Source: an uncultured bacterium
GTDB lineage: Bacteria; Patescibacteriota; Minisyncoccia; Phycocordibacterales; UBA2163
Direction of reading: 5' to 3'
Assembly (NCBI GenBank): GCA_913041175.1
Contig: CAJWGW010000003.1
Coordinates: 1-36,402 of the forward strand
Length of the DNA: 36,402 nt
The position numbers and the translations under genes were made by a program. Shown here in pieces: positions 7,750 through 35,030 of the stretch. Each line of letters opens with the position of its first letter. Position 1 is the first letter of the stretch. A model generated the notes under the pieces. The model was not told the DNA's origin. It ran no database searches and was given only the letters and a program-made list of their open reading frames with translations.

Positions 7750-8406
7750 ATGCATAGATTCAACCAAATCATTGGGATAGCATTTGATTTTTTCTTACCT
7801 AAATCCCCGCTTGATAAAGCCGTTGATGAAGTCAACGTGGAGAGTTTGTCAAAGAAATTACTTAAGGGAAGGGAAACTGAAAACGAATCTATCTATGCCC
7901 TATTTGACTATCAAGATGAGCTCATAAGACATATGGTATGGGCGCTTAAATACAGGAGAAATCGGAGAGCCGCTCAAATCTTTGCGCAGATTCTTTATGA
8001 TTTCCTCGCAGAAGAGTTCTCGGATTTGAATGTTTATTCGGATTTTGATAAACCACTACTTGTCCCTATCCCGCTTTTCAAAAAGAGACTAAGAAAAAGG
8101 GGATTCAACCAAACAGAAATCCTTGCGAAAGAGATTGCCGTAATCGGTGGTGATTCTTTTTGCACGCTTCACACGGGTTTACTTAGAAAAATAAAAGATA
8201 CACCGAGCCAGACATCACTTGAAAGAGAAGCGAGGTTGAGAAATGTAGCAGGCGCATTTGCTGTAGCAAATGTGCCTAATATAAAAAACCGAAACATAGT
8301 CTTGCTTGATGATGTTACAACAACAGGAGCAACATTAAACGAAGCTCGCAAGACTTTACTCAACTCCGGCGCAAAAAGCGTTTTGGGAGTCGCAGTTGCA
8401 CATTGA
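7750..8406 (+). CDS. comF: ComF family competence protein (phosphoribosyltransferase fold)
   Basis: LKY, LVPIP, RGFNQ, R..NV.GAF, LLDDVTTTGATL motifs; no N-terminal Cys zinc ribbon. Confidence 0.92.
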   Translation: MHRFNQIIGIAFDFFLPKSPLDKAVDEVNVESLSKKLLKGRETENESIYALFDYQDELIRHMVWALKYRRNRRAAQIFAQILYDFLAEEFSDLNVYSDFDKPLLVPIPLFKKRLRKRGFNQTEILAKEIAVIGGDSFCTLHTGLLRKIKDTPSQTSLEREARLRNVAGAFAVANVPNIKNRNIVLLDDVTTTGATLNEARKTLLNSGAKSVLGVAVAH

Positions 8407-8916
8407 GTGGAAATAAAAAACCCCCTGTTGTAGAAAACAGGGAGTTTGTGCCATTCTTTTAAGATCAAGTTTTGGCTTTGGTGCAAGAGAACGAAGTTCT
8501 TCTTCGCTTGTACCAATATCGTCAAGAGAAAGATCTCCTTCTTTAAGTCTTTCGCGTAAGCGTTTTATCCAAGTAGGATATTGAGACGGTTTTTCACGTA
8601 TCCACCTAATATATCTTTGAGCTCTCAATTTACACCCTTCTATAAATAGTTCTTCGAGTTCTTTTTTACTTGTACCAATGTCAGTAAGAGAAAGACCGCC
8701 TCTTTCAAGATTTTTTCGTAAAGATTCTATCTGAAAATGACGAGCATATGGATATTTACGTATGTAGTCAAGATTTTTTTGAACAGATACGAAATAAGTT
8801 TTTCTTGTTTCTTTAGTTGCTAAATCATTAAGTAATGTGATTACTATCACTATTACTAAAATCGAAATAGATACTATGAGGACATATATTCCATATATAA
8901 TGAACACTTTCTTCAT
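8356..8916 (-). CDS. Hypothetical membrane-anchored protein with two 54-aa repeats
   Basis: N-terminal TM; repeats GGLSLTDIGTSKKELEEL and GDLSLDDIGTSEEELRSL; AAGGAGG upstream. The C-terminal tail overlapping comF is doubtful. Confidence 0.75.
   Translation of the reverse strand: MKKVFIIYGIYVLIVSISILVIVIVITLLNDLATKETRKTYFVSVQKNLDYIRKYPYARHFQIESLRKNLERGGLSLTDIGTSKKELEELFIEGCKLRAQRYIRWIREKPSQYPTWIKRLRERLKEGDLSLDDIGTSEEELRSLAPKPKLDLKRMAQTPCFLQQGVFYFHSMCNCDSQNAFCAGVE
8415..8447 (-). terminator. Intrinsic terminator between convergent comF and the accessory operon
   Basis: aaac-cccctgtt/aacaggga-gttt stem with an A-run on its left (U-tract on - strand). Confidence 0.6.
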
Positions 8917-9037
8917 TTCGTCTTCCTCCTTTTTGAAGTTCTATGAAATCAAGATAGGTAAAGCGGTATACTCCGGATATGATGTCGAAGATCTTAGATC
9001 TTCCTTTTATTCATATTATCATTAGCAACCGCTTTAC

Positions 9038-9223
9038 CTAAAGAAATTCCATTCTGTTCCTTCTTCTTATCTTGGAAGTCGGAATAAGATTAGGAGATGA
9101 GCCAGAGCCATGTATCTTTAAAGCTCGCTCAAGGATTACCATAGAATAACTAGCTCTAGACTCTAAATATCGGCTTTCTTTTTCATCTTTTTCTTCTCTA
9201 GATTTTTTGCGTTTAGTCGTCAT
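9038..9223 (-). CDS. Small basic hypothetical protein
   Basis: 61-aa ORF preceded by AGAGGAG-ATAGTT-ATG, 12 nt after the upstream ORF. Confidence 0.6.
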   Translation of the reverse strand: MTTKRKKSREEKDEKESRYLESRASYSMVILERALKIHGSGSSPNLIPTSKIRRRNRMEFL

Positions 9224-9235
9224 AACTATCTCCTC

Positions 9236-9442
9236 TTATACTTTCAGAAATAATTTTCTTATATCATTATGAAGGCAACCACATGTTTTCTGCATTACTT
9301 CTTTTGCTGTGAAATTCTCTACAAGACATTTGTCGCATACTCCATCTCCAAATGGCCATAGATGTTTAAAGAAACCCTTACATTCACAGCATTGAGAAAG
9401 TACTGTTCTAAATCCATAAGATTGTTTTTTTACAGTTAACAT
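9236..9442 (-). CDS. Small Cys-rich hypothetical protein (possible zinc ribbon)
   Basis: CCECKG, CDKC and CGC motifs; AAGGAGG-TAGTT-ATG upstream. Confidence 0.65.
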   Translation of the reverse strand: MLTVKKQSYGFRTVLSQCCECKGFFKHLWPFGDGVCDKCLVENFTAKEVMQKTCGCLHNDIRKLFLKV

Positions 9443-9481
9443 AACTACCTCCTTTTAAGGTTTGGGTTTTTGTCTAGGTTT

Positions 9482-9511
9482 AGTATATAAAAATACACAA
9501 GAAAAAGTCAA
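9482..9511 (-). promoter_or_regulatory. Sigma70-type promoter of the accessory operon
   Basis: TTGACT-N18-TATACT on - strand, about 40 nt before ATG 9442. Confidence 0.6.
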
Positions 9512-9532
9512 ATCAAAGTTGAGGGTGGGAGC

Positions 9533-9575
9533 AAAAAAATAAGGGGTTATCTAACATATAGCTAGATAACCCCTT
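9533..9575 (-). terminator. Intrinsic terminator downstream of the zinc-finger ORF
   Basis: 13-bp stem AAGGGGTTATCTA/TAGATAACCCCTT with a U-tract on - strand. Confidence 0.75.
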
Positions 9576-9581
9576 TATTAT

Positions 9582-9857
9582 TTACTTACAAGATATTAAA
9601 CCTTTCCGAAGAACCGGATTCCAGATTTTAATCTCACCAGCTCCTTTGCATTTCCAACATCGGTTGCATATTACTTTTTCGTTTTTGGACCAAATAGTCT
9701 TAGCTCCATTACACTTACCACATGACTGTCGGTAAAATGGATGTGTAAATCTGCCTGTTCCGTCACATTTTTTGCAATTAACAATTACTTTAGTACGTCT
9801 TTGTCTGAACTTACCTGTTCCATCACAAGCAAAACAGGAGCAACACGATAAATTAAT
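9582..9857 (-). pseudogene. DnaJ-type CxxCxGxG zinc-finger ORF lacking a canonical start (5'-truncated or AUU-initiated)
   Basis: Manual translation: INLSCCSCFACDGTGKFRQRRTKVIVNCKKCDGTGRFTHPFYRQSCGKCNGAKTIWSKNEKVICNRCWKCKGAGEIKIWNPVLRKGLISCK*. In-frame TAA two codons upstream of ATT 9857. Confidence 0.75.
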
Positions 9858-9871
9858 ATATTATCGTTAAC

Positions 9872-9900
9872 AAAAAGGCTACAGCAATGTAGCCTTTTTT
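9872..9900. terminator. Bidirectional terminator-like hairpin (orphan)
   Basis: AAAAAGGCTACA-GCAA-TGTAGCCTTTTT perfect stem with a GNRA loop. Confidence 0.7.
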
Positions 9901-9943
9901 ATATGGAAAAAGGTGCAGAAAAATGATATTGTTGCAATTATAT

Positions 9944-10030
9944 GGAGAGTTGGCTGAGTGGTCTAAAGCGCCTCACTGCTAACGAGGTAAGGGTTAAACC
10001 CCTTCGAGAGTTCGAATCTCTCACTCTCCG
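9944..10030 (+). tRNA. tRNA-Ser(GCT)
   Basis: GGAGAGT/ACTCTCC acceptor stem, G73, anticodon loop CTGCTAA, long variable arm, GTTCGAATC T-loop; CCA not encoded. Confidence 0.93.
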
Positions 10031-10106
10031 CATTAGTAACTCGTGACCGAATCCCCAAAACCCCCTATTTGACCCAAATACCTCAAATTTTGGTAGAATA
10101 GAACCT

Positions 10107-11162
10107 ATGGATAAAAAGATAGCCCAGATGTTTATAGTCGCCCTCCCCTACACCACGGACGAGAAGGAACTTTTTGAGACAGTGGAAAAATATATAGACA
10201 TCGGTGTCGGCGGACTTATGCTCGGTCTTGGTGGTAAATTACCGTTCGTAGAGACAAACAACATCACTGATATTAAAAAGTTAAAAGCTTTGACTGACAA
10301 ACTAAAGTCATTAGACCCAAATCTGTTTTTGGCAATTGACGGCGAGGGCGGAAAGATATTTAACCTTTTTAAAAACGCATCTGCGCTCAAATCCCAAAGA
10401 TATTACGGACTTGAATTTGAAAATTCAGGAAATACAAAGGAGTACGAGAAAGATTTGGATGAATATATAAAACTAATGCGCAAAGTTCATATCAATATGA
10501 ACTTTGCGCCTATTTTAGGCACTGCAAAGGAAGGATACAAAGGATACTTAAGCGAACACGACAGAGCATATTCTGACAAAGAAGAAACTGTGAAAAAATT
10601 AAGCGGAATTGCGATTAAAAAGATGAGTGAGAATGGGATTATCGCCGTGGGCAAACATTTCCCTGGATATGGTGGTATAGACGAAAACCCGCACTTGCAT
10701 CTTTCAAAACTTGAAGCTTACGACAAAAATGACCCGTTTGGCTTTGCAATAGGAAAGCTTGGTATAAACGCAATAATGAAAGGGCATGTCCTTTCGTCAA
10801 TTGATGAAGATATGCCCGCAACAATATCAGAGAAAGTTGAAAAATACTTGAGAAAGAGTTTAGGGTTCACAGGACTTGTGGTAACTGATGCGATTTTTAT
10901 GCATGGTTTGGGACACCATTATGAGAAATTTGGAGGAGATGGCAACTACACAAAAAGAGCGGTTAGTGTCGCCAAAACAAACGACATTATTCTTATGAGC
11001 TATCCTAAAGGAGCAAATGGTGAAATAGATATAAGTGCGCATGAGCATTTCCCAAGACTACATAAAGCAATAGTGGAGGAAGTTATGAAGGGCGAGATAG
11101 ATAAAAGTAAAATAGACGAATCATACGAGAGAATAATGAAACTAAAACGTGTTATAATGTAA
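10107..11162 (+). CDS. Glycoside hydrolase family 3, NagZ-like beta-N-acetylglucosaminidase
   Basis: AIDGEGG, INMNFAP, DRAYS, KHFPGYG, GFTGLVVTDA..M motifs; single TIM-barrel length. Confidence 0.85.
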   Translation: MDKKIAQMFIVALPYTTDEKELFETVEKYIDIGVGGLMLGLGGKLPFVETNNITDIKKLKALTDKLKSLDPNLFLAIDGEGGKIFNLFKNASALKSQRYYGLEFENSGNTKEYEKDLDEYIKLMRKVHINMNFAPILGTAKEGYKGYLSEHDRAYSDKEETVKKLSGIAIKKMSENGIIAVGKHFPGYGGIDENPHLHLSKLEAYDKNDPFGFAIGKLGINAIMKGHVLSSIDEDMPATISEKVEKYLRKSLGFTGLVVTDAIFMHGLGHHYEKFGGDGNYTKRAVSVAKTNDIILMSYPKGANGEIDISAHEHFPRLHKAIVEEVMKGEIDKSKIDESYERIMKLKRVIM

Positions 11163-11191
11163 TAATTACTAACTTAAATAATATTATTGAT

Positions 11192-11644
11192 ATGAAGGGA
11201 ATAATAACTATCATAATAATTATAATAATCATCGCCGTTGGATTCTTTTTACTTCAAGACGGGACCACAGAGGATGCCGGTACAGTAACAAATGAGATGA
11301 CCACAGAGGAAACTGGTGATACTGCAGATATGATTGTAGAGGATGAAGACACTGCTTTAGATACAACTGCAGAAGTTATTGTGGTTACATACACTAGTAG
11401 TGCGTTTTCACCAAAAGATATTGCAGTATCTGCCGGCCAGACAGTGCGGTTTGTAAATGAAAGTTCCGGCAATATGTGGGTGGCGTCGGATGAACATCCG
11501 ACGCATACGGTTCTGCCGGAGTTTGATAATAAGGAGTCTGTTGGGAACGGTGAGAATTATGAGTTTGTGTTCACAGAAACGGGTGAATGGAATTATCACA
11601 ACCACGTGAACCCAAGTGCGGTGGGAACGGTGACTGTTGAATAA
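11192..11644 (+). CDS. Membrane-anchored cupredoxin-fold protein
   Basis: Ile-rich TM, acidic linker, FSP..I.V.AGQTVRFVN, G.W.YHNH, GTVTVE. Confidence 0.85.
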   Translation: MKGIITIIIIIIIIAVGFFLLQDGTTEDAGTVTNEMTTEETGDTADMIVEDEDTALDTTAEVIVVTYTSSAFSPKDIAVSAGQTVRFVNESSGNMWVASDEHPTHTVLPEFDNKESVGNGENYEFVFTETGEWNYHNHVNPSAVGTVTVE

Positions 11645-11714
11645 CCTTGTTTACACCCAATACCGCAAAATGCTATTATTATGGCATTATTAACAGTGAT
11701 AATTTTCAATGTAC

Positions 11715-11900
11715 ATGAAAAGAATAATAACTATCATAATAATTATCATCATTATCGTCGCAGGTTTCTTGCTATTTAGAGACAATCCCGCAGATGATGC
11801 TGATACAACTACTACTACAGAAGAGGTAGTTGAGACGGAAGATACAGATACAGAAGACGATGCAGCGGCAGCAATAGAAGCAGTGGAAGCGGTAGAATAA
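11715..11900 (+). CDS. Small membrane-anchored acidic protein sharing its N-terminus with the upstream cupredoxin
   Basis: MKRIITIIIIIIIIVAGFLL versus MKGIITIIIIIIIIAVGFFLL; followed by a terminator. Confidence 0.65.
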   Translation: MKRIITIIIIIIIIVAGFLLFRDNPADDADTTTTTEEVVETEDTDTEDDAAAAIEAVEAVE

Positions 11901-11910
11901 ATTTACAATC

Positions 11911-11943
11911 AAAACCCCGCAGGCCAAAGGCCTGCGGGGTTTT
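11911..11943. terminator. Bidirectional intrinsic terminator
   Basis: AAAACCCCGCAGGCC-AAA-GGCCTGCGGGGTTTT perfect stem. Confidence 0.85.
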
Positions 11944-11962
11944 GTCTGTTATACTAAACCCT

Positions 11963-14119
11963 ATGCAACCAAATAACCCCTTAGAAAATCACTTCCGTTT
12001 AGCGCAATCACAAAAAAGTGCGCTTAAAAAGCTTGGTATTTTGACTATCCGAGACCTCCTTTTTCACTTCCCTTCTCGGTATGAAAATATTACTGGAAGC
12101 CTGCCTATAAGTTCTCTCAAAAAAGATGATGATACAATAATCTACGGCAAACTAAGTGGGCTTAAAACACGCAAATCCTTCAAAAGCAGGCGCCCTATTG
12201 CAGAAGGATATATTGAGGACAATACGGGAAAAATCAAAATCATCTGGTTCAACCAGCCATACATCGCAAAGATGTTGCGTAATGGCGCACTCGTAAAACT
12301 AAGCGGTAAAGTAACAGGTGATACAAAAAACTTATACATCGCAAACCCAGAAGCTGAATCCCTAGAAAACTTGCCTATCAATATCGGCGAATCGCTTTTC
12401 AGCAATTCTAAAAATATAAATACATTCCTACCTGTTTATCCTGAAAGTCGTGGTATTACTTCAAAATGGTTTTATCACAATATTCAAAAAATTTTTGCAA
12501 GCGGACTTCTGGATACAATGCAAGATGCTATACCAAATGAGATTCTAAAAAAATACAACCTTCCGACACTCAAAACCGCTCTAATCTGGATTCATACGCC
12601 GAAGACGCAAGCAGATAGTCAGTCAGCACGAAAACGGTTTGCATTTGCAGAAGTTTTCTTCATTCAGATTTCAAAACAAAGAGACCGCAAAGAATATGAA
12701 AAGAAAAAGTCGTTTTCTATAAAAACAGATAAAAAAGATGTAAAAGAATTTATGGAAAGATTCCCTTTCTCCGCAACCAAATCGCAAAATGAAGCAATAG
12801 AAAGTATCTTAAAAGATTTTGAAGGCAAGCACGCAATGTCACGACTCCTTGAGGGAGATGTCGGCTCTGGTAAAACTGCCGTCGCCGCAACTGTTGTGCA
12901 TGCTGTTACAACCACGCGTCCCGAAGGACAGGACTTTGGCAATCTTCAGACCGCATATATGGTACCGACGGAAATCCTAGCAAAACAACATTTTGAGACA
13001 TTTATACAATACTTTTCACACTTACCAATCAAAATTGGTCTCATAACTTCAAGCGGTTGCAAGAAATTCCCCTCTAAAGTGAGCTCAGATGGCGCTACTA
13101 ATATATCCCGCACGCAACTCCTAAAATGGGTCGCAAATGGCGAGATTCCAATCCTTATCGGCACTCACTCCCTCATCCAAAAGACGGTGAACTTTGAAAA
13201 TTTGGCGTTTATAATAATAGACGAGCAACACCGTTTTGGCACAGCCCAGAGACAAAAATTAACAAGAAAGGACGATATAGCCCCTCACCTGTTATCAATG
13301 ACAGCAACACCAATTCCAAGAACGCTCGCCTTGACCATTTATGGCGATTTAGATTTGACTGTACTTGATGAGATGCCAAAGGGGCGAAAACCGATAATCA
13401 CAGAGATAGTAACGCCAAAGGGTCGCGATAAAATATATGAGAAAGTGTGCGAAGAATTAAAATCAGGCAGGCAAGCTTATGTGATAACTCCAAGGATTGA
13501 CGAGCCGGATTTAACAAAAGAAAAAGCAATCAATGCAAAGTCAGTAAAAGAAGAAGCTAAGCGACTTAAGAAAGATATTTTTCCCGAGTATGAAATAGAG
13601 ATTCTTCACAGCAAGATGAAAGCAAGTGAGAAAGAAGAAGTGATGGAGAGATTTACAAAAAACAAAACTCAAATTCTTGTTGCAACTTCCGTGGTTGAGG
13701 TCGGAGTAAATGTACCAAACGCTACTGTGATAATTATTGAAGGTGCGGAGCGCTTTGGACTGGCACAACTCCACCAGCTCCGTGGACGAGTGATAAGAAG
13801 TAACCACCAAGCGTATGCTTATGTATTTTCAGACAGCAGAACGGCAAAAACAAATGAAAGATTAAAAGCGCTCAAAAGTGCAAAGAACGGTTTTGAACTC
13901 GCAGAGTTTGATTTGGGAATCCGTGGTTCAGGTGAGCTCTACGGCAAGCGCCAGTCGGGGCTTTCCGACATTGCGATGGAAGCAATGAAAAATATTAAAA
14001 TGGTAGAAGCCGCACGAGAAGAGGCAAAAGAAATAGTAGAGAAAGATAACAACCTTGAAAAATATCCCGAAATTATGGAGATAATAAAGCGCAGAACGAA
14101 AGACATTCACTTTGAGTAA
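11963..14119 (+). CDS. recG: ATP-dependent DNA helicase RecG
   Basis: LLFHFPSRY, OB-fold WFNQPY, RLLEGDVGSGKT, IIDEQHRFG, MTATPIPRTL, AERFGLAQLHQLRGRV. ATG 11963 chosen because the TTG at 11942 lies in the terminator. Confidence 0.97.
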   Translation: MQPNNPLENHFRLAQSQKSALKKLGILTIRDLLFHFPSRYENITGSLPISSLKKDDDTIIYGKLSGLKTRKSFKSRRPIAEGYIEDNTGKIKIIWFNQPYIAKMLRNGALVKLSGKVTGDTKNLYIANPEAESLENLPINIGESLFSNSKNINTFLPVYPESRGITSKWFYHNIQKIFASGLLDTMQDAIPNEILKKYNLPTLKTALIWIHTPKTQADSQSARKRFAFAEVFFIQISKQRDRKEYEKKKSFSIKTDKKDVKEFMERFPFSATKSQNEAIESILKDFEGKHAMSRLLEGDVGSGKTAVAATVVHAVTTTRPEGQDFGNLQTAYMVPTEILAKQHFETFIQYFSHLPIKIGLITSSGCKKFPSKVSSDGATNISRTQLLKWVANGEIPILIGTHSLIQKTVNFENLAFIIIDEQHRFGTAQRQKLTRKDDIAPHLLSMTATPIPRTLALTIYGDLDLTVLDEMPKGRKPIITEIVTPKGRDKIYEKVCEELKSGRQAYVITPRIDEPDLTKEKAINAKSVKEEAKRLKKDIFPEYEIEILHSKMKASEKEEVMERFTKNKTQILVATSVVEVGVNVPNATVIIIEGAERFGLAQLHQLRGRVIRSNHQAYAYVFSDSRTAKTNERLKALKSAKNGFELAEFDLGIRGSGELYGKRQSGLSDIAMEAMKNIKMVEAAREEAKEIVEKDNNLEKYPEIMEIIKRRTKDIHFE

Positions 14120-14120
14120 T

Positions 14121-14196
14121 TGGTGCGCGCGCTAGGACTCGAACCTAGGACCACGAAGGTATAAGCTTCGCGCTCTACCAACTGAGCTACACGCGC
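14121..14196 (-). tRNA. tRNA-Ile(TAT)
   Basis: GCGCGTG-TA-GCTC AGTTGGTA GAGC-G-CGAAG CTTATAC CTTCG-TGGTC-CTAGG TTCGAGT CCTAG-CGCGCGC-A-CCA: complete cloverleaf, anticodon TAT, CCA encoded. Confidence 0.92.
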
Positions 14197-14229
14197 ATTT
14201 ATTTATATTTTATAGCACAAAATACGCTA

Positions 14230-16164
14230 TTATTCACTATGTTCTATATCTTGCTTTTTCTTTGGAGTAATGCTGTTTAAGAGAAGTAGTTTTTCAAACT
14301 CATCGCGTTCAATTGTTTCAACTTCAACAAGTTTCTTTGCAATTGAATCAAGCGCTTTTCTGTGAGTCTTTAGAATATGTTCCGCGCTTCTGTGAGCATG
14401 GTCTATTATGTAAGTTACTTCAGCATCTATCTCCGCTGATACTTTTTCAGAGTGTTTTTTATCCGCTATTCCTATACCAAACATTGTTCGTCCATTGTCC
14501 CCTTCAAGTGCAACAGGACCCATCTTCTCGGACATTCCGTATTTTGTAACCATATTTCGCGCAAGCGCAGTTAATACTTGCAAGTCATTTGATGCGCCTG
14601 TCGTAAGGTCATCAAATATCATTTTCTCTGCCAAGTATCCACCGAGTGAAACCGCAATGTCATCAATGAATTCTTTCTTTGACTGCATTCTCCTGTCTTC
14701 AAACGGAAGTTTAAGTGTGTATCCTGCAGCTCGCCCTCGAGATATTATAGAAATCTTGTGCACGGGGTCAGCGTAAGGCAGAACAGAAGCGACGAGTGCA
14801 TGTCCTGCTTCGTGATACGCTGTTATTTCCTTTTCGCGTTTTGAGAGAATGTGGCTCTTACGCTCAGGCCCGAGCATAACTTTTTCAATTGAACGAACGA
14901 AATCAAATTGCGATACTTGTTTTCTTTCCTCTCTCGCTGCCAAAATCGCAGCTTCGTTCACTAGTGAGTAAAGGTCCGCTCCAGAGAATCCGGGAGTACG
15001 CTCTGCAATAGTTGTAAAGTTTACATCCTCGCCTAACGGCTTCTTACGCGCGTGGATTTTAAGTATATCTTCTCTGTCTTTACGGTCAGGCAGGTCTATA
15101 ACTACCCTTCTGTCAAAACGCCCAGGACGCAAAAGCGCTGGGTCAAGCACGTCCGGTCTGTTGGTTGCAGCCATCACTATCACCTTTTCATTTGGCTCAA
15201 AACCGTCCATCTCCACAAGTATTTGGTTGAGTGTTTGTTCTCGCTCGTCATTGCCACCTCCTGCACCTACTCCTCTTACTCGCCCTACTGCGTCAATCTC
15301 ATCTACAAAAATTATCGCCGGCGCTGTTTTCTTTGCAAGTTTAAACAAATCACGCACACGCGATGCTCCAACTCCAACAAACATTTCCACGAACTCCGAA
15401 CCAGAAATTGAGAAGAACGGCACACTCGCCTCGCCGGCGACGGCGCGCGCAAGTAAAGTCTTACCAGTTCCGGGCGCGCCCATAAGTACGATACCTTTAG
15501 GAATGCGCGCGCCTATATCTAAGAATTTTTTAGGGTTCTTAAGAAAATCAACAATTTCCAAAAGTTCTTGTTTTGCTTCCTTTGCACCTGCAACGTCATT
15601 AAATGTTATACGTTGTGTTTTGTCTTTTGGGTCAATCATTCTTGCTTTGGACTGCCCAAAGGAGAACGCCTGCATACCCGCGCCTTTGACCTGTCTAGAG
15701 AGAAACCAGATGAAAAATACAATAAAGAGAAGCGGGATAAGAAACGGCGCGAGATTGCCAAGCCAGAAAAGAAAACCGCTTGGATTTTTGATTTCAATTT
15801 TTACATCTTTAAGCTCTTCTAAAGATACACCATAATTTACAAGAGTGTCAGTGAGTGCGGTACCTGATTCTTTTTTTGATTTTTGTTCTGTGCTGTCAGT
15901 GTAGAGAATCTCAAGCTCTTCGCCTTTGACTACAATTTCAGAGACTAACCTCTCATTTATCTGAAGAGCTAATTGTGAAATAGCTATTTTTTCTTGCTTT
16001 GTACCATTCTCAGCAATGAGAGAATACGCCCCTATTATTATGAAAAATATGAGAAGTGTTACAAGGATATTCTGCCACAAGGACTTACCAAGTGACTGTT
16101 TGAGTCCCTTTTTACCGCCCTTTTTTGGGGCTTTTAGATGATTGTACTTTTTGTTGTTTGGCAT
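14230..16164 (-). CDS. ftsH: ATP-dependent zinc metalloprotease FtsH
   Basis: Two TMs, [34 protein letters not shown]. Confidence 0.98.
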
Positions 16165-16191
16165 GCTAAATACGTGTTTTATTTTTTATTG

Positions 16192-16563
16192 TGGAGACGG
16201 CGAAAATTGAATCCGCGTGCAAAGAAAGAATTTAAATGATTCTACAAAACATAGTCAACTTTAGGATTTCAGCATGTGGGCTTAAAAGAAGACAAAATAC
16301 CCATACGCCAATTCTCTTGATTTCGGAAGCGCGCCGAGACGCTCGCTTTTCCTAGTTTGAAATTATTACACCCGAATCTGCTTATCAAACTTGGGCAGAT
16401 CAGACGCCGGCTTAGGCTATTGCGTAAGCTGGAGTAAGAGAAGCAAAAGCTCCTTTTACTTTAGAGATAACGTTTGCACGTATCTTTTCGAAATTTTAAG
16501 GAAGATTCCGACTTCCGTTTTGCACATATAAATTACATTCCCTTGTCGAGGCCTGTCATCCCC
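16192..16563 (-). ncRNA. ssrA: tmRNA; tag ANVISKVKGAFASLTPAYAIA* (16477-16412)
   Basis: 5' GGGGATG pairs with 3' CGTCTCC-A with G3.U70; T-arm GCGGA-TTCAATT-TTCGC; internal GCA resume codon ORF; directly downstream of smpB. Confidence 0.93.
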
Positions 16564-16608
16564 CTGAAAAAAACCTCAAAAGATACTCTGAGGCATTCTT
16601 TAGGGGGA

Positions 16609-17064
16609 CTATAATGCAATGTTTTGTTTCAATGAACGTTTAAGATCTCTTTCGGTGTCTTTCTTTTTTATTGTTTCGCGCTTGTCGTATTTCTTTTTTC
16701 CTTTTGCAACACCGATTTCAACTTTTATCTTCGCTCTTTTACTATACACTAAAACTGGCACTATTGTCAACCCTTTTTGTTTTTCAAATAGAGAGAGACG
16801 AGCTATCTCTTTTTTACTCAAAAGTAGCCGACGGTTCCGCTCAGGGTCATAATCTTTCGGAGTATTTGCGGGCTGATACGGTGGTATCGTAACGCCCACA
16901 AGGAACGCCTCACCTCCCCTAACTATCACATGCGCTCCCTCAAGCGAGCCCTGCCCCCCTCGGAGTGATTTGACTTCAAAACCAAAAAGCTCCATTCCTG
17001 CCTCGAATGTTTCAGTAACTTCATAGTTGAAGCGTGCTTTTTTATTTTTTATCAATACTGTCAT
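16609..17064 (-). CDS. smpB: SsrA-binding protein SmpB
   Basis: NKKARFNY, EAGMEL.G.EVKS, R.RRLLL.KKEI, KGKKKYDKRE. Confidence 0.97.
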   Translation of the reverse strand: MTVLIKNKKARFNYEVTETFEAGMELFGFEVKSLRGGQGSLEGAHVIVRGGEAFLVGVTIPPYQPANTPKDYDPERNRRLLLSKKEIARLSLFEKQKGLTIVPVLVYSKRAKIKVEIGVAKGKKKYDKRETIKKKDTERDLKRSLKQNIAL

Positions 17065-17107
17065 TAATGTCATATTAGCATGCACAAGCACAGAAAAGAA
17101 ATTCTCC

Positions 17108-17136
17108 TTGACATCAGAAAAAGTTTGTGATAATCT
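17108..17136 (+). promoter_or_regulatory. Sigma70-type promoter of a single-gene cassette
   Basis: TTGACA-N17-TAATCT with an extended TG; boxA-like GTTCTTTTA at 17153-17161. Confidence 0.65.
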
Positions 17137-17198
17137 AATGGCTCATTGAATAGTTCTTTTATATTTATATTTCTGAAATTTCATGAAAGGAAATGAAT

Positions 17199-17417
17199 AT
17201 GTGCACCGCTGTTCCTGAAAAACAACTGGAAGTATTGTGTGGTTGTGAAGATTCATTTTGTCCTCTTTTCAAAAACTTGTCAGAAAAAGAAATGATGGAA
17301 CTGGAAATAATAGGCTATGAAACAGATTGTTTTATCATTATTGACAGTTGTGAGACTGGAGCACCTGATATAAGTAAACTTATATCAGAGAGAGGTGAAT
17401 ATACAATCTACGAATAA
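17199..17417 (+). CDS. Small acidic Cys-containing hypothetical protein
   Basis: ORF between its own promoter and terminator; AAAGGA upstream is better spaced to ATG 17199 than to 17193. Confidence 0.6.
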   Translation: MCTAVPEKQLEVLCGCEDSFCPLFKNLSEKEMMELEIIGYETDCFIIIDSCETGAPDISKLISERGEYTIYE

Positions 17418-17421
17418 TTTT

Positions 17422-17456
17422 ATAAAGCCGCTAATCTTAAAAGATAGCGGCTTTAT
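17422..17456 (+). terminator. Intrinsic terminator
   Basis: ATAAAGCCGCTA...TAGCGGCTTTAT stem right after the stop codon. Confidence 0.75.
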
Positions 17457-17491
17457 TGTATCAAACACAGTGATATGCTATAATTTTCCCA

Positions 17492-18004
17492 TTGATAGAA
17501 AAAGTAAGAATTAACAAAAGCATACTGGCAAAAGAATTAAGAGTTATGGGCGCCGATGGCGCTAATTTAGGTGTTATTTCAAAAGACGAAGCGCTAAGAC
17601 AAGCAGAGACCGCGGGTCTTGACCTCATTGAAATATCTCCCAAAGCCAACCCCCCTGTTGCAAAAATAATGGATTATGGTAAATTTCAGTACGAGCAGAA
17701 GAAAAAACAAAAGGAAATAAAGGCTAAATCTCACACCACAGAGACTAAAAACATTCAGATAAAGATGGGTACAGGAGAGCATGACCTTTCTCTCAAATCA
17801 AAAAGAATTTCCGAGTGGCTTAAAGAGGGACACAGAGTAAAGATTGACTTGTTTCTCTTTGGAAGATATAAGTATATGGAATTCAATTTCCTAAAGGAAC
17901 GTCTAGAGAAATTCTTAACACTTATTACAGAAGAATACAAAGTAGCAGAGGCAGTCAAAAAGAGCCCTAAAGGATTGACTACAGTTATAGAAAAAACAAA
18001 ATGA
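17492..18004 (+). CDS. infC: Translation initiation factor IF-3
   Basis: RIN..I...ELRV, GLDLIEISPKANPPVAKIMDYGKF; non-AUG start (TTG, or ATA at 17495). Confidence 0.96.
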   Translation: MIEKVRINKSILAKELRVMGADGANLGVISKDEALRQAETAGLDLIEISPKANPPVAKIMDYGKFQYEQKKKQKEIKAKSHTTETKNIQIKMGTGEHDLSLKSKRISEWLKEGHRVKIDLFLFGRYKYMEFNFLKERLEKFLTLITEEYKVAEAVKKSPKGLTTVIEKTK

Positions 18005-23383: not shown

Positions 23384-23389
23384 AGTATT

Positions 23390-23824: not shown

Positions 23825-23838
23825 ATTTTTACATTAAA

Positions 23839-26010: not shown

Positions 26011-27369
26011 TCAATCAATTATCTCTATTTCATCACTTAACTCCTTCTTGGATTTTCCAATGAAAACTATAGCACCTGCTGAAACTACTATTATGCTGAA
26101 AATTGCCAAAAGCCATTTAAACATACTGCTTTCTTTATCCTGATTATTTATACTTGAAATGACTGACGCTGTTTGAATAGTATTTTCTTGCGGCTCTTTT
26201 AGTGCCTCTTTTTGTGGTGGATCTGCTTTTGTAATTATCGGTTGTGCTGTAATCGTTTTTGTAGCAACAGTCTTTTGCGGAATTTTAATTTGCTCAAATG
26301 AAACTGCCTCTACGCCGTTTGGATATAAAAGTGATGCATCATTAGTATGAGTATTTAGACCAGTTACATCAGAAGAAAATATTAATTTCTTGCCGGACAA
26401 AATAATCGTATCTTTTGGAACCATAAATCTTTTCCCCTCTGCTTCTAGTTGCCACCACGAAAGATTGAGTTCACGATTTGATTTATTATGTATTTCAACA
26501 AAATCTTCCTGCACTTTTGAAACAGCAAGTTCCGCAGGATATGCATTTACAATAATCCTATCAGATGCAGAATATTGCCCTGATGAAATACTTAACGTTA
26601 CTACATACTCGCCGGGATACCCATAATAATAAAGTACATTCTGTCCTTCTTTGGTCTCACCATTTCCAAAGTTCCAAGTATATCTTGCATTATCAAGCGG
26701 TTGCATCTTTAGTCCAAGCGACTCCCCTTCAAACAAAGTATCAGCACCAACTACCACATTTCTATCTCCCCCTGCATCTGCAAAAATCTGCTGTTCAACT
26801 GGAAAATTGTTTGTAGAAGATGAACTGCTCGAACTAGACTCTGAGCTCTCTTCTTCTTGTTCACTTTCCTCACCTCCTCCTGAGCCAGAGTTAGCCAGAC
26901 CGGGTGTTGGGAGAGCAGCACTCCAAACACTTAAAATTAGCTGAAGTGAGTTGCCGTCCTCGCCTGCACCGAGTTCTATGTCATATGTTAATGAATCAAT
27001 ATCATTTAAATCTGCGTCTCTAATAGCAATAAGCTCTCCTGTGTTTTTTAGAGAGAAAGAACTGTCAAATAAGTTGCCAGAAAAGGAGGGCCAATCAATT
27101 AGAAATTTGTCAGGATTGTCAGAAATAATCGCAACATCACTGGAAGACAGTGTTGCGTTACCTTGAATCAAAGTAAGTCCATGATTTGTTCCATTCTCAA
27201 AAAATTTCCACGTCGATATATCAACTGAATCTCCTGTATTTTCAATTTCAACCCACTCTCTACCTGTATCACTTCCTTCTATGTCATACATCACCTCACT
27301 TATAACAACCTGCGCGTTTAGAGAGGAAAACGAGGCAAAAAACATTATAGGGATGAGAATATATTTCAT
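26011..27369 (-). CDS. Surface protein with lamin-tail (LTD) and PKD domains, C-terminal TM anchor
   Basis: Signal peptide, VVISEVMYD..G.D..REWVEI.N and PTPG (LTD), ADAGGD..YTWNFGNG..Y..PG.Y.VTL (PKD), second LTD-like segment. Confidence 0.8.
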   Translation of the reverse strand: MKYILIPIMFFASFSSLNAQVVISEVMYDIEGSDTGREWVEIENTGDSVDISTWKFFENGTNHGLTLIQGNATLSSSDVAIISDNPDKFLIDWPSFSGNLFDSSFSLKNTGELIAIRDADLNDIDSLTYDIELGAGEDGNSLQLILSVWSAALPTPGLANSGSGGGEESEQEEESSESSSSSSSSTNNFPVEQQIFADAGGDRNVVVGADTLFEGESLGLKMQPLDNARYTWNFGNGETKEGQNVLYYYGYPGEYVVTLSISSGQYSASDRIIVNAYPAELAVSKVQEDFVEIHNKSNRELNLSWWQLEAEGKRFMVPKDTIILSGKKLIFSSDVTGLNTHTNDASLLYPNGVEAVSFEQIKIPQKTVATKTITAQPIITKADPPQKEALKEPQENTIQTASVISSINNQDKESSMFKWLLAIFSIIVVSAGAIVFIGKSKKELSDEIEIID

Positions 27370-29159
27370 ATCTGCTTGTCCTTGCCTTCAACATCCAGCA
27401 TCTTTTTCAGAACATCTTCAGGAACTTCTTTTTTTGGAGTTACTTCATCTATTACTTTATCTTGTGTTTTATTTTTAGAATTCTTGGTTGGATTTGAATT
27501 TGGCCATTTTTTAAAAGGCTTGCCATGTGCTCCGGCAAAAGGTTCATAATCTGAACTTTTTTTGTTTTCTTTTTGTGCTTGAACATCCTCGTCTTTACCA
27601 TTCATAACAGACGCAAGAGCTTTTTTTAAGTCTGATCTATTTTCTTTGCTTGGTTCTTTTTTTGTCTTAGGTATTATTTTTGGAGAAGTTTTGAGCTCAT
27701 TTAGTGAAACTACTTTCTGTGGCATTACTTTAGGGCCAACTGGTACTTCCTTTTTAAGAGTTTGTGTTTGTTTTAATTGAGCTTCTGTAAGTGGTGGAAG
27801 TTCTGTCTTGTTTTGCGGTGGTTTTTTAACAGTTTCTGTCGTTTTTGCTTTTGGTTTTGATGGAGGAACAATAGGTTCGTACCACAGCTTTATATTATCT
27901 TCAACAAGAGCACGCGGCCTGCCATAGTGCTCACGAGAAAATGTCATAACTTTTTCTTTAATAGATACGTGTTTTGGTTCAATAGGAGCAAGTGAGGTAG
28001 CAGAAAATGGTGCAGATGAAACACCATCTATCATTAACTTCAAATACATTTGAATGAAGCCGAGATTTACCAAATCCTCTGCAGTAAATGTCGGCATATA
28101 TTCTTTTTCTAAAACTTCTGCGTCAATCGCACCAACACGAAATGTAATCATAGTACCCACGTTACCAAACACTGCGTCCCTTACTTCCTCCGTCATCTGT
28201 TCTATATATTGATGCGCAATCGTAAGATTGAGCTTGTATTTTCTCGCTTCTGATAAGATATCCGCAAACGACTTGTTTGCAAATGATTGAAACTCGTCAA
28301 CATAAAGAAAAAAGTTTGGTAAATTTTCTTTAACTACAGCTGATACATCAGCTCTTGACATCGCTGCCAAATAAATTTTTGTAATGAGCATACTTCCAAG
28401 AAGGTTCACGTTACCTTCACCCACTCTTCCTTTTGATAAGTTAATAATAAGTATCTTTTTATTGTCCATCATTTCTCTTATATCAAAAGACGACTTTGGT
28501 TGTCCTATGATATTTCTCATAAGAGAGTTTGAAGTAAACTGCCCGACTTTGTTCTGGATTGCAGCTGATGCCTCAACCGCAAACCTGCCACTATATTTTT
28601 CAAATTCATCTACCCAAAAAGATTTGACGGATGGATCTTGTACATTATCCACTACTTTTTTTCTATAATTCTTATCAGACATCATCCTGTTGATACCTAA
28701 AAGTGTAGAATCAGGATATTCAAGAAGCGCTAAGATTGTGTTATTCAAAATATACGCCATTCTCGCTGACCATGCGTCTTCCCAAATCTTCTCAAATACA
28801 CTCATAAGACCACTTACGACAAGATGCCGTTTGTCTGGCTCTACATTTTCCATCACATTAAAAGAAACCGGGTGTTCCAAATCAAATGGCGCAAAATAAA
28901 GCACGTCTTGAATACGTTCTTCTGGAATATGTTCAAGTAATGTCTCTGCAGATGAACCATGCGGGTCAAAAAAAGCAAGACCTTCTCCGTTTTGAATATC
29001 CTGAATGGCCATGTTCTCCAAAAGCACCGACTTACCCATTCCGGTCTTACCAATGACATACACGTGCTTTAGTCTATCTTTTGCCTTTATGCCGAATTTT
29101 ATTTTTTTGCCACGAAAGTCCGTAGAGCCAAAAAATGTAGTTCGTTCTTTGTGATTCAT
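27366..29159 (-). CDS. VirD4/TraD/HerA-like P-loop ATPase with a low-complexity C-terminal tail
   Basis: HVYVIGKTGMGKS (Walker A), DPHG, LYVDEFQ (Walker B), LSEARKY, AHQY..Q, GNVGT..FRVG. Confidence 0.85.
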   Translation of the reverse strand: MNHKERTTFFGSTDFRGKKIKFGIKAKDRLKHVYVIGKTGMGKSVLLENMAIQDIQNGEGLAFFDPHGSSAETLLEHIPEERIQDVLYFAPFDLEHPVSFNVMENVEPDKRHLVVSGLMSVFEKIWEDAWSARMAYILNNTILALLEYPDSTLLGINRMMSDKNYRKKVVDNVQDPSVKSFWVDEFEKYSGRFAVEASAAIQNKVGQFTSNSLMRNIIGQPKSSFDIREMMDNKKILIINLSKGRVGEGNVNLLGSMLITKIYLAAMSRADVSAVVKENLPNFFLYVDEFQSFANKSFADILSEARKYKLNLTIAHQYIEQMTEEVRDAVFGNVGTMITFRVGAIDAEVLEKEYMPTFTAEDLVNLGFIQMYLKLMIDGVSSAPFSATSLAPIEPKHVSIKEKVMTFSREHYGRPRALVEDNIKLWYEPIVPPSKPKAKTTETVKKPPQNKTELPPLTEAQLKQTQTLKKEVPVGPKVMPQKVVSLNELKTSPKIIPKTKKEPSKENRSDLKKALASVMNGKDEDVQAQKENKKSSDYEPFAGAHGKPFKKWPNSNPTKNSKNKTQDKVIDEVTPKKEVPEDVLKKMLDVEGKDKQI

Positions 29160-31899: not shown

Positions 31900-31908
31900 A
31901 CTTCAATA

Positions 31909-33282: not shown

Positions 33283-33341
33283 AGTAGAAGATAAAATAGA
33301 GTTATCTTTAAATCGTTAACGGAAATTCTAGAGGGATGATT

Positions 33342-33728
33342 ATGAGAAAGTTTCTATTATTGATTTTCACAATTTTTGTAATTACTGTTTTTTGCCACAC
33401 AGAGAAAGCAACTGCCGAAACGCTGAACATGCTGGTAACAGCATATTGTCCTTGTGAAAAATGTTGTGGAGAATCAAGTGATGGTAGAACATCAAAAAAC
33501 GATGATGCTTACATTTGCGACGGTGTTGCAGCTGATCCAAAAGCTATTCCGTACCGCACAAAATTAAAAATTCCAGGAGCTGGGATCAAAGAAGTGGACG
33601 ACACAGGTGGTGCTATGAGGCAATCTTGGAGGAAGAAAGGAATCTATCATATAGATTTGAGATTTTCAAACCATCAGGATGCACTGAACTGGGGTAGACA
33701 ACAACTTGATGTAGAAATATTAAAATAA
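33342..33728 (+). CDS. Secreted 3D-domain protein (MltA-like / cell-wall lytic fold)
   Basis: Signal peptide, VTAYCPC..CC, VAADP..IP, DTGGA, IDL, A..WG; AGAGGG upstream of ATG 33342. Confidence 0.9.
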   Translation: MRKFLLLIFTIFVITVFCHTEKATAETLNMLVTAYCPCEKCCGESSDGRTSKNDDAYICDGVAADPKAIPYRTKLKIPGAGIKEVDDTGGAMRQSWRKKGIYHIDLRFSNHQDALNWGRQQLDVEILK

Positions 33729-33739
33729 ATAGAGCAACG

Positions 33740-33776
33740 AAGGGTGACGAAGTTTTAACTTCAGTCACCCTTTTTT
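33740..33776 (+). terminator. Intrinsic terminator (probably bidirectional, shared with tRNA-Ile)
   Basis: AAGGGTGAC-GAAGTT/AACTTC-A-GTCACCCTT followed by a T-tract. Confidence 0.8.
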
Positions 33777-33782
33777 ATTTTG

Positions 33783-33856
33783 TGCGAGTGCTAGGAATCG
33801 AACCTAGGACCTCATCCTTATCAGAGATGCGCTCTAACCAACTGAGCTACACTCGC
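33783..33856 (-). tRNA. tRNA-Ile(GAT)
   Basis: GCGAGTG/CACTCGC-A acceptor, CATCT-CTGATAA-GGATG anticodon arm, GGTTCGATTCC; CCA not encoded; own promoter TTGCCC-N17-TACCAT upstream. Confidence 0.95.
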
Positions 33857-33938
33857 AATAGCAAAATGGTACCAAAAAATAAGGGTTCGGGCAATTATTG
33901 ATTTATAAAATTTTGAAATAAGAAAACCGAGAAATATA

Positions 33939-34222
33939 TCATTCCTCGGTTTTTAGTACTTCTTTCACCTTTTCCCAGTACTTTTTTGTACTGGGCTTCT
34001 TGTAACCATTTGGCCCGCCGTTCCATATGCGAGCCATGTCTTGAAGAGTTGGTTCTCTTCCAATCCTTCTTTCAATAGCGTAATAATCAATATATTCTCT
34101 GCAGATGGCTATCGAACGTATGCAGATACCAAGACGACAAAAAACATAAAGAGCAAACAAATAAATAACCAAAAAAAACAGTCGTATAAAATACCGACAA
34201 GAGATAACAATGTTTTTAGCAT
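33939..34222 (-). pseudogene. Disrupted lysozyme-like (i-type/destabilase-like) gene
   Basis: AAGGAGG-led ATG 34222 gives a 37-aa hydrophobic peptide. The ARIWNGGPNG...T..YW.KV C-terminal half is in the -1 frame, and the catalytic N-half is not visible. Confidence 0.65.
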
Positions 34223-34263
34223 TATTCGCCTCCTTTTATTTTGCTATAAATATAACTTTGTCT

Positions 34264-34406
34264 AGGATATCACATTTATATTATTTTGTCAATACTTTGA
34301 CATATATGGTGATGGTGATAAAGTGAAATTAGCTATATATTAGGCAATACAGCTTATTAGTGGTTTTTAGAAAGTACTTGACAAAATAATATAAACATGA
34401 TACGCT
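34264..34406. promoter_or_regulatory. Divergent pair of near-identical sigma70 promoters
   Basis: - strand TTGACA-N17-TATCCT (34292-34264) and + strand TTGACA-N17-TACGCT (34378-34406), both with extended TG; a third TTGACA-N16-TAAAGT lies at 34297. Confidence 0.7.
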
Positions 34407-34524
34407 GTTTACTTATATCTTATTACAAGATGTAGTAAGTGTTCTTTTTAATTAATATTCTTCGGAAGGAAGATAAATTATTATTTAAGTTTTTTGGCCT
34501 TTTTTTGAAAGGGAGGTGAGAAAG

Positions 34525-34971
34525 ATGTTAGCAATATCTAAGAAGAGAAATTGGTTTTTATCAATAGTATTCTTCTTCGGGTTAGGGCTATTGGGACTCA
34601 CAGGATGTGAAACCTACGAGAATGTAGGGGGCGGCTCTGCAATTGGCGCAGGACTTGGTGCCTTGGTGGGCGCAGCTGTGGGTGATACTGCCGCAGGTGC
34701 AGCAATAGGGGCTGGAATTGGTGCTGTCGGAGGCCTAGCAAAAGATAATATGGAGATCCGACAAGAAAATCGTGCTAACCAAGCTCAAAGTAATATCAGA
34801 CTGCGCGATTTAGAAGTAAACGCCGAGATTGACAGGCAAATCAGAATACTCAAAGCGCAAGGATACACAGCGGATAAATACGTGTATAGCGCAGTAAGGG
34901 GAATAGACGGTGGAATAATTGTCAATCCCATCGAAAGAAGCGGGGTTCCTAAAACAGAGGTTTATAAATAA
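34525..34971 (+). CDS. Glycine-zipper lipoprotein
   Basis: Signal peptide with lipobox LTG|C, GxxxG zipper GSAIGAGLGALVGAAVG..AGAAIGAGIGAVGG; GGAGGTG 6 nt before ATG 34525. Confidence 0.85.
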   Translation: MLAISKKRNWFLSIVFFFGLGLLGLTGCETYENVGGGSAIGAGLGALVGAAVGDTAAGAAIGAGIGAVGGLAKDNMEIRQENRANQAQSNIRLRDLEVNAEIDRQIRILKAQGYTADKYVYSAVRGIDGGIIVNPIERSGVPKTEVYK

Positions 34972-34995
34972 TATAAACAAATTCAAAAAGAGATT

Positions 34996-35030
34996 ACCAC
35001 TTCCATGAGGTTTATGGAAGTGGTTTTTTT
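34996..35030 (+). terminator. Intrinsic terminator
   Basis: ACCACTTCCAT/ATGGAAGTGGT stem followed by a T-tract. Confidence 0.85.

Follow-up and report, generated by a model that had tools for sequence, protein, structure and literature searches.

Organisms whose 16S rRNA lacks the anti-Shine-Dalgarno (anti-SD) sequence are reportedly, according to Lim et al. in 2012, generally devoid of Shine-Dalgarno (SD) motifs. The same is stated in the available parts of two surveys (Amin et al., 2018, PMC6107228; Nikolaeva et al., 2021, PMC7782861). Only 48% of Parcubacteria carry the anti-SD motif, and there is overlap between the lineages devoid of it and the group that lacks the ribosomal protein uL1; that the anti-SD has been lost is as such already published for this uL1-lacking subgroup, as given in the part of the article at hand (Tsurumaki et al., 2022, RNA 28:1041, PMC9297842). 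The present analysis concerns a stretch of 36,402 nucleotides (hereafter the window), which is contig C3 (CAJWGW010000003.1) of the genome of an uncultured bacterium of the Patescibacteria, G000, probably of Parcubacteria type. In this window several short accessory open reading frames (ORFs) are led by textbook SD motifs, whereas the 16S rRNA tail encoded in the same stretch reads UUUCC rather than CCUCC. The sequence-only reading of the window had regarded such ORFs as cassettes formatted for a different translation machinery. The genome-wide analysis places them in a discrete SD-led class that coincides with flexible and recently exchanged genes, in an order whose readable relatives all carry a degenerate tail.

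Several described systems share individual features with this one. The Parcubacteria of Tsurumaki et al. resemble G000 in that CCUCCU is missing from the 16S 3' end and uL1 was not found, and the nearest homologs of the SD-led Gam protein of G000 stand in records whose titles name Patescibacteria or Parcubacteria groups; a genome of 444 kb would also fit Parcubacteria in size. In the portion of that article considered here, the missing motif is reported and SD helices are suggested not to form, and a retained SD-led minority is not described. Another related case is the 'SD-blind' translation of Bacteroidia, in which the anti-SD is present but sequestered and rpsU keeps a strong SD for autoregulation (Jha et al., 2021, PMC7797042; PMC13000453 and PMC13000457, 2026). 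As far as the accessible text of these papers goes, Bacteroidia are similar to G000 in having bulk genes without SD, adenines upstream of the start and very few genes with a strong SD. Unlike in Bacteroidia, the anti-SD of G000 is mutated, its rpsU has no SD, and its SD-led genes are dozens of accessory ORFs. Compared with the anti-SD-less organisms in the available parts of the surveys, G000 is likewise without genome-wide SD enrichment and without a motif complementary to its variant tail, but it differs from them in possessing an SD-led class that is positionally exact. Because such surveys, in those parts, test motif enrichment over all genes, a class of 5-10% would be invisible to them. 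With regard to canonical SD initiation, the purine-rich, CCUCC-complementary motif 5-10 nt before the start is found in G000, and the complementary anti-SD of its own ribosome is not.

The SD-led units are also comparable to flexible genomic islands and hot-spot cassettes, which are likewise single- or few-gene units in fixed slots with content varying between relatives; as in islands exchanged by homologous recombination, the flanking core genes are exchanged too. Integron cassettes are a looser analogy, since they depend on an integrase and attC sites and are promoterless, while each unit of G000 appears to bring a promoter-like site and a terminator of its own. The slots of the window showed neither an integrase nor a transposase, and no attC-like repeat (44 ORFs searched with Pfam; attC models were not run), in agreement with the sequence-only reading, which had noticed no integrase or transposase beside the cassettes. 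In the literature outside subscription journals and the supplements of PMC9297842, no SD-led accessory class was found described for anti-SD-less genomes of the candidate phyla radiation (CPR).

An SD-led minority beside a degenerate 16S tail

The genome of G000 comprises 444,356 bases in 28 contigs and is rated 99.63% complete and 0.04% contaminated. A simple codon-bias caller, which takes the longest ORF as the start, yielded 431 genes, and 422 starts were used for the leader statistics. Three relatives served for the genome-wide comparison: the nearest species (G001, all 16 contigs), a congener with a median protein identity of 75% (G007, 470 kb, ~90%) and a relative with an intact anti-SD (G308, 388 kb, about half).

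A single 16S locus is present in G000. Its end, GGAUUAUUUCC, is devoid of CCUCC; past helix 45 the sequence is GTGGATTATTTCCAACGG, and TTTCC (35192-35188) occupies the usual place of CCTCC within the tail GGATTATTTCC at 35198-35188. No CCUCCU occurs at the 3' end, the tail being GGATTATTTCCAACGG, and CCTCC is absent from all 1218 nt of 16S within the window. The tail of G308, in comparison, is GGATCACCTCCTTTCT, with the canonical CCTCC. The congeners share the tail of G000. Among 41 genomes of the same order, 25 gave a 16S match, and none of the 18 distinct readable tails from relatives contains CCTCC; these are of the GGA(A/T)T...TTC(C/A)A type. Six further tails from Gam-bearing genomes of the order are likewise without CCTCC. 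Tails with a single C (UUUCAA and similar), which pair with the SD even worse, occur in many families of the order. A degenerate tail, in G000 UUUCC for CCUCC, is common to every readable relative of the order. Moreover, uL1 (PF00687) has no match in G000, whereas 14 of 14 control genomes match. The gene for bS21 (rpsU, contig C12, ~5890-6045, minus strand) is present and has no SD upstream. The 8 nt before its ATG, TCACCTCA, are anti-SD-like and stand immediately past a TAATAT box, which suggests a very short rpsU leader.

The bulk of the gene starts is characterized by leaders poor in guanine (G frequency 0.10-0.16 at -12 to -4, i.e. depleted), rich in adenine (0.42-0.52 from -14 to -2) and with T at -1 in 0.56 of cases. 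Such an A-rich, T(-1) context might serve SD-independent start selection. The mean predicted pairing energy (dG) with the canonical anti-SD is -1.58 kcal/mol at starts and -1.98 in the control window. GGAGG occurs 1.08 times per kb in the coding sense and 0.68 times per kb in intergenic sequence, and therefore is not avoided. The exact complements of the organism's own tail (GGAAA, TGGAA, TTGGA) form no peak at the SD position of G000 starts. Core genes would thus probably start by SD-independent initiation, as described for Bacteroidia.

Against this background a minority of starts stands out. A dG of -8 kcal/mol or lower was reached by 29 of 422 starts, compared with 13 in the control window and 2.2-3.3% of random windows (binomial p 2e-4 to 1e-7 for the excess). 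The 5' ends of canonical SD 5-mers are concentrated at the proper distance, with 45 in the five positions from -14 to -10 and 30 in the twenty positions from -35 to -16, which against ~1.5 per position nearby gives a Poisson p of 1e-20. The sequences are textbook SD motifs, e.g. aaaAGGAGGtgttcaATG. A scan that included small ORFs listed 47 with an AAGGAGG-type motif 5-10 nt before the start, 41 of which remained after curation, with a mean predicted dG of -11.2 kcal/mol against the canonical tail. Under a strict rule (ATG start, ORF of at least 50 aa, upstream frame closed), 38 SD-led ORFs were counted, against 14-15 with the same motifs at wrong spacings. In total there are about 40 SD-led ORFs, approximately 25 of them beyond chance, and they make up 5-10% of genes. 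The main elements of the sequence-only reading are borne out by these results, namely the UUUCC tail, core genes without SD, and units matched to the canonical CCUCC that their own ribosome lacks; the genome-wide scoring of SD strength that it had proposed brings out a discrete class with a sharp positional peak.

The curation removed C26_2852 and C23_70, in which the 'SD' is internal to a longer ORF, C10_211 (pilin) with its doubtful start, C4_19050, and two ORFs of the window, 33336-33728, which has only a weak motif, and 17193-17417. The candidate SD of C17_3282 is a terminator stem. A pattern census of 41 relatives (AAGGAG-N5-10-ATG against N25-30, 47 vs 41 for G000) was replaced by gene-anchored counts, because AAGGAG is too common inside genes.

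The SD-led ORFs are short, with a median length of 123 aa compared with 256 aa in other genes, and in 40 of 47 no Pfam family passes the curated cut-off. Seven were assigned, namely Mu Gam, dCTP deaminase, NUDIX, methyltransferase, 3D domain, a glycine-zipper lipoprotein-like protein and pilin. PHROG matches were obtained for eight of 47 (Mu Gam, dCTP deaminase, NUDIX, methyltransferase, 3D-domain, pilin, zinc ribbon and a weak tape-measure match), and no structural phage hallmarks were among them. The ORFs are clustered, as SD-SD neighbours number 13 and permutations give 4.5 +/- 1.9. Their synonymous codon usage is native (0.114 vs 0.110 for the genome, p 0.51) and their GC content slightly lower (0.348 vs 0.374, 2.6 points). 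N-terminal hydrophobic segments are not significantly enriched (15/47 vs 85/401, p 0.10). The ratio of non-synonymous to synonymous substitution rates (dN/dS), pooled over recent pairs shared with G001, is 0.28 for SD-led genes and 0.24 for recently exchanged non-SD genes, and by this value the SD-led ORFs are real genes under purifying selection.

Two groups of small proteins may be mentioned separately. An SD-led 54-aa zinc-ribbon protein (G000 C1 25181-25345, plus strand) matches phrog_1257 ('ribosome associated inhibitor A; zinc finger domain') with an E-value of 1.6e-14 and is strongly conserved to G001, with a dN/dS of 0.07. A family of small secreted proteins has a common leader (..ATCTCTTGAAAGGAGATCAAAAATGAAAA..) and signal peptide and mature parts that are unlike each other (G000 C1 35824-36825; G001 C8 ~61000-61300; G007 L059 6860-7261 and L076 2748-3098); ATCTC and GAGAT in this leader could form a pairing that spans the SD.

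Flexible gene content and exchange between relatives

The SD-led ORFs are the flexible part of the genome and occur as insertions or deletions at fixed positions flanked by conserved genes. In G007, a homolog was found for only 3 of 30 called SD-led genes, compared with 330 of 401 non-SD genes (p 4e-16; 5 of 47 in the full list), and in G001 for 18 of 30 and 369 of 401, respectively. Both relatives carry SD-led minorities of their own. The core genes of G000 and G001 are synonymously saturated, with a median third-position identity of 0.585 at conserved residues (n=355) and a pooled synonymous divergence (dS) of 1.47. A third-position identity of at least 0.9 was reached by 8 of the 17 called SD-led genes that have a counterpart in G001 and by 24 of 355 others (p 2e-5), and the pooled dS of the recent SD-led pairs is 0.10. 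The 50 nt upstream show a median identity of 96% for SD-led genes (n=11) and 54% for other intergenic upstream regions (n=111). Many of the units are thus recent arrivals, placed as indels at hot spots; recent capture had been one of the options raised from the window alone.

The recently shared genes without SD include core genes adjacent to islands, such as TsaD, TsaE, Ddl, sugar-nucleotide enzymes and glycosyltransferases. That island-flanking core genes are also recent is expected from homologous recombination of tracts together with their flanks. Such tracts fit recombination after DNA uptake, without showing it. A clean one-gene insertion is seen at G000 C5 ~23222-24176, where a transglutaminase-like gene of 255 aa with its own SD and terminator separates two core genes with 62 nt between them in G001; direct repeats on either side of it are not evident. 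In another case, a 700-nt insert with an SD-led ORF also provides the SD before dcd in both G000 and G001; no SD precedes the G003 orthologue of dcd, which is 81% identical.

Among the SD-led genes only Gam could be traced widely, by searching an alignment of five sequences against 185,579 species genomes. Within the order, 13 of 301 genomes contain it, and its locus differs between G000 and G001. Its nearest relatives are all from Patescibacteria (44-74% identity), those from Proteobacteria reach 33-45%, and the IMG/VR viral contigs contain only distant Mu-like Gam relatives (at most 44% identity), with no phage close to this lineage. In each of the 11 Patescibacteria Gam homologs whose start could be read, AAGGAG(G) precedes the ATG by 5-8 nt. 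The 16S tails of their hosts are without CCTCC in G313, G314 and G315 and with CCTCC in G308 and G311; the tail of the Gam host G307 is GGATCATCTC. SD-led Gam occurs in several anti-SD-less families of the order, including those with poorer tails.

The relative with the canonical tail has no bulk SD either, since the mean dG in G308 is -1.93 kcal/mol at starts and -1.87 in the control. It nevertheless has 25 of 300 starts at a dG of -8 or lower, against 8 in the control, and 49 SD-led ORFs under the strict rule, against 7-11 at wrong spacings. A Pfam family is missing in 37 of 48 of these ORFs, and their accessory status is deduced from this feature alone. As G308 shows the same pattern, a core without SD together with an SD-led minority is a trait of the wider group and is independent of the anti-SD.

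Possible origins of the SD format

The explanation preferred here, with a confidence slightly above even, is that the SD is the common format of the group's laterally moving gene pool and is carried into lineages without anti-SD. An accessory unit would consist of a promoter-like site, an SD, an ORF and a hairpin terminator, self-contained and mostly family-less. Such units would be swapped between related species by recombination at fixed slots, among them the comF/tRNA-Ser slot and the 16S/tRNA-Ile spacer of the window, and the route would probably be DNA uptake followed by homologous recombination. In an anti-SD-less lineage the SD motif would arrive with the genes and mark flexible, often recent DNA, while core translation would proceed without it; the motif would add little to translation in G000. 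It would persist there because the pool keeps exchanging with lineages able to read it. Several observations weigh against this explanation. The SD is found in both members of four old same-locus allele pairs (C21_197, C21_743, C2_458 and C8_22865), which are synonymously saturated and have diverged flanks; a neutral SD should have decayed in them, unless the alleles arrived separately. Two ORFan families were found in just 2 of the 301 genomes searched within the order and are confined to the genus, so that exchange with anti-SD-bearing lineages is shown for Gam alone. The anti-SD-bearing sample consists of one genome of 388 kb, and in the three genomes without anti-SD the SD-led excess per Mb still amounts to about half of that in G308, which is high for a pure passenger. 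The gene caller is also crude, with the longest ORF taken as the start and ORFs under ~50 aa missed.

The persistence of the motif might alternatively be due to selection within the anti-SD-less host, the SD-led genes then being a separately translated or regulated class, a possibility that is rather doubtful but by no means negligible. The SD would be read through GGAGG-UUUCC pairing with two G-U wobbles, or by a mechanism that does without the 16S tail. Both C-to-U changes of the tail convert G-C pairs to G-U, and the predicted pairing with the own tail, by wobble only, amounts to -5.7 kcal/mol for the 41 SD leaders compared with -2.8 for 392 other genes. The saturated allele pairs with retained SD, the SD-led Gam homologs in several anti-SD-less families, the native codon usage and purifying selection on the proteins, and an SD-led class about half as dense as in the anti-SD-bearing relative are all compatible with selection. 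On the other hand, exact complements of the own tail have no peak at the SD position, families with single-C tails pair even worse and still carry SD-led Gam, and the close dcd orthologue of G003 has no SD. Moreover, whole upstream regions are conserved in the shared SD-led genes, which fits recency better than selection on the motif. Purifying selection on the SD before flexible, fast-evolving genes in an order that lost the anti-SD long ago, with ribosomes that recognise it without CCUCC by wobble, a protein or another rRNA element, is considered tentatively and as unlikely. If it were true, two initiation modes would coexist: core genes would use a default mode, and accessory genes alone would depend on the SD.

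The other explanations seek the reader of the SD outside the organism or question the assembly. Fresh capture from unrelated SD-using bacteria, e.g. the organism's own host, by means of the adjacent pilus and ComF system would make the SDs undecayed relics of the donor. It is suggested by the textbook canonical sequence and spacing of the motifs, by the type IV pilus and ComF-like genes that adjoin one island and by the lack of a homolog in congeners for most cassettes, but it appears improbable, as the codon usage equals that of the genome and the GC content is just 2.6 points lower. In addition, traceable homologs are nearest in Patescibacteria, with those of Proteobacteria and viral contigs far more distant, the 186-aa ORFan of the window has 6 relatives in 5.8 billion proteins, and the two genus-confined ORFan families speak against a distant donor as well. 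The proposal made from the sequence alone that the cassettes are kept in a 'host format' by an episymbiont, for delivery to and translation by its bacterial host, has found no positive evidence and is very improbable. Although the SD fits canonical ribosomes and not the organism's own, and a TrwB/TraG-like ATPase and a VirB2/TrbC-like pilin could in principle export DNA or protein, the same SD-led class exists in the relative with an intact anti-SD, and because of this a foreign ribosome is not needed to explain the format. The codon usage is that of the symbiont itself, the class includes cytoplasmic enzymes (dCTP deaminase, NUDIX, methyltransferase) and lipoprotein-like envelope proteins, and the window showed neither an origin of transfer nor a relaxase or integrase. 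RNA contigs identical to the island in runs that also hold the organism's tmRNA point weakly in the same direction, DNA carry-over being possible. An artefact in the form of a chimeric contig, a mis-binned 16S or an unassembled second canonical 16S copy, some of which had been named in advance as refuting the first reading, is extremely improbable. A slight enrichment of SD-led ORFs near contig ends could hint at it (22/47 vs 127/401 within 2.5 kb, p 0.05; 13/47 vs 71/401 within 1 kb, p 0.11). It is contradicted by the presence of 16S, ribosomal protein genes and SD-led cassettes on one contig that is syntenic with G001 and G007, by the single 16S locus at the given completeness and contamination, and by the same tail in congeners. 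Finally, 12 DNA runs contain 98-99% of the words sampled from 8000-17900, which spans both the island and its flanks, although some of them may be the source sample. The common format of a laterally moving pool remains the preferred explanation.

Cassettes of the window and significance of the SD-led class

The features of the window are collected in Table 1. All five strong motifs noticed in the sequence-only reading are located before the starts assigned to them (8916, 9223, 9442, 34222 and 34525), while its two weaker sites are doubtful. The idea of self-contained accessory units was supported. Hairpin terminators exceed the number in shuffled sequences (3 vs 1.1; 6 vs 1.4, one of the six being 16S helix 45), but a promoter consensus scan gave no excess (5 vs 5.6; 9 vs 7.4), with single sites being well placed.

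Table 1. Coordinates of the SD-led units and associated features in the window.
Feature	Position	Strand	Signals and remarks
Type IV pilus operon and ComF-like gene	3-8406		Pfam
ComF-like gene	7750-8406		Convergent with the 186-aa SD-led ORF
SD-led ORF, 186 aa	8356-8931	-	N-terminal membrane segment, no Pfam family; AAGGAGG 8925-8931, 8 nt before ATG 8916; hairpin terminator 8418-8447, common to this ORF and the convergent comF-like gene
SD-led ORF, 61 aa	9038-9236	-	AGAGGAG 9230-9236, 6 nt before ATG 9223
SD-led Cys-rich ORF, 68 aa	9236-9575	-	AAGGAGG 9448-9454, 6 nt before ATG 9442; promoter-like TTGACT-18-TATACT at 9511-9482, hairpin terminator 9575-9541 upstream of it
tRNA-Ser(GCU)	9944-10031	+	Bounds the variable slot between the comF-like gene and the GH3 gene
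Doubtful member, 74-aa ORF (17193-17417)	17186-17417	+	AAAGGA 17186-17191 before the ORF; upstream of infC
TrwB/TraG-like coupling ATPase	27366-29159	-	Pfam
3D-domain secreted protein, 130 aa, accessory	33330-33728	+	Pfam 3D 26.8 bits; PHROG matches
tRNA-Ile(GAU) of the rRNA operon	33782-33856	-	Parted from 16S by the inserted cassette
SD-led hydrophobic ORF, 37 aa	34109-34292	-	AAGGAGG 34229-34235, 6 nt before ATG 34222; promoter-like TTGACA-17-TATCCT at 34292-34264; downstream terminator hairpin 33953-33923
SD-led glycine-zipper lipoprotein-like gene, 148 aa	34510-35024	+	Pfam Gly-zipper; AGGGAGGTG 34510-34518, ATG 34525; hairpin terminator 34996-35024
16S rRNA, 3' part, 1218 nt	35185-36402	-	Cut by the window end; Rfam RF00177, 1142 bits

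The comF/tRNA-Ser slot with its three ORFs (8356-9442) holds unrelated sequence in G001 and other SD-led ORFs after comF in G007. Neither the 186-aa nor the 61-aa ORF has a homolog in these two relatives, and the latter is also without a Pfam or PHROG family. In three RNA libraries, which stem from two studies, contigs agree with parts of 8193-9445 except for one letter at 8227. They lie over the region of the 186-aa ORF (8193-8384, 8452-8702 and 8781-9057) and over the 68-aa ORF (9123-9440 and 9123-9445, in two runs); in the same runs tmRNA is present at more than 100x the depth of the island contigs. Because DNA carry-over is possible in RNA libraries, transcription of this island is only weakly hinted at. 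The contigs cover the stretch partly, so that uncovered parts are uninformative, and they cannot rank genes.

The second slot is formed by the 16S-tRNA-Ile spacer of the rRNA operon, in which the 37-aa ORF and the opposite-strand 148-aa gene are placed (33894-35060). The cassette (34109-34971) is present in G001, and the spacer of G007 measures ~120 nt. The 148-aa gene is 99.3% identical in G001, with 0 synonymous changes, and absent from G007, while the 37-aa ORF differs from G001 by 5 non-synonymous and 1 synonymous change, its coding status being uncertain. The neighbouring 3D-domain gene has no homolog in G001 or G007, where the slot content is different in both; its motif AGAGGG (33330-33335) is weak, as it abuts ATG 33336 and lies 6 nt before ATG 33342. 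The other doubtful site, AAAGGA before a start at 17199, precedes a stretch (17193-17417) that is probably a conserved non-coding leader of infC-rpmI-rplT, because the comparison with G001 gave 10 non-synonymous changes against 1 synonymous (dN/dS 2.45) and the ATG is replaced by GTG at the start. The 70 nt upstream are almost identical in G001, and no Rfam family was found at gathering thresholds.

The window also contains the GH3 gene, recG, ftsH, tmRNA, smpB, part of the ribosomal protein/secY cluster and two Mur ligase-family genes. An additional tRNA-Ile with the anticodon UAU lies at 14121-14196 (minus strand); isoleucine tRNAs of this kind are uncommon among bacteria, and would decode AUA without lysidine. 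The VirB2/TrbC-like pilin is encoded on contig C4 (19340-19741, plus strand) and is 96% identical in G001, with a third-position identity of 0.92. The 12 DNA runs that contain 8000-17900 are marine, seawater or hydrothermal-vent metagenomes from ~10 studies (2017-2025), and their recurrence reflects either a very widespread near-identical population or a recurrent contaminant.

Summarizing, surveys have held, in the parts available here, that bacteria without anti-SD use no SD, whereas in G000 an SD-led class of 5-10% survives and coincides with laterally exchanged genes. The exotic reading of the cassettes by host ribosomes is no longer needed. If the pattern is general, the SD would be a cheap sequence marker of flexible or recently exchanged genes in Parcubacteria, which are mostly family-less and hard to classify. 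For translation in the CPR, it raises the question of why the mobile pool keeps a format that core genes have abandoned, and whether ribosomes with a degenerate tail can read it.

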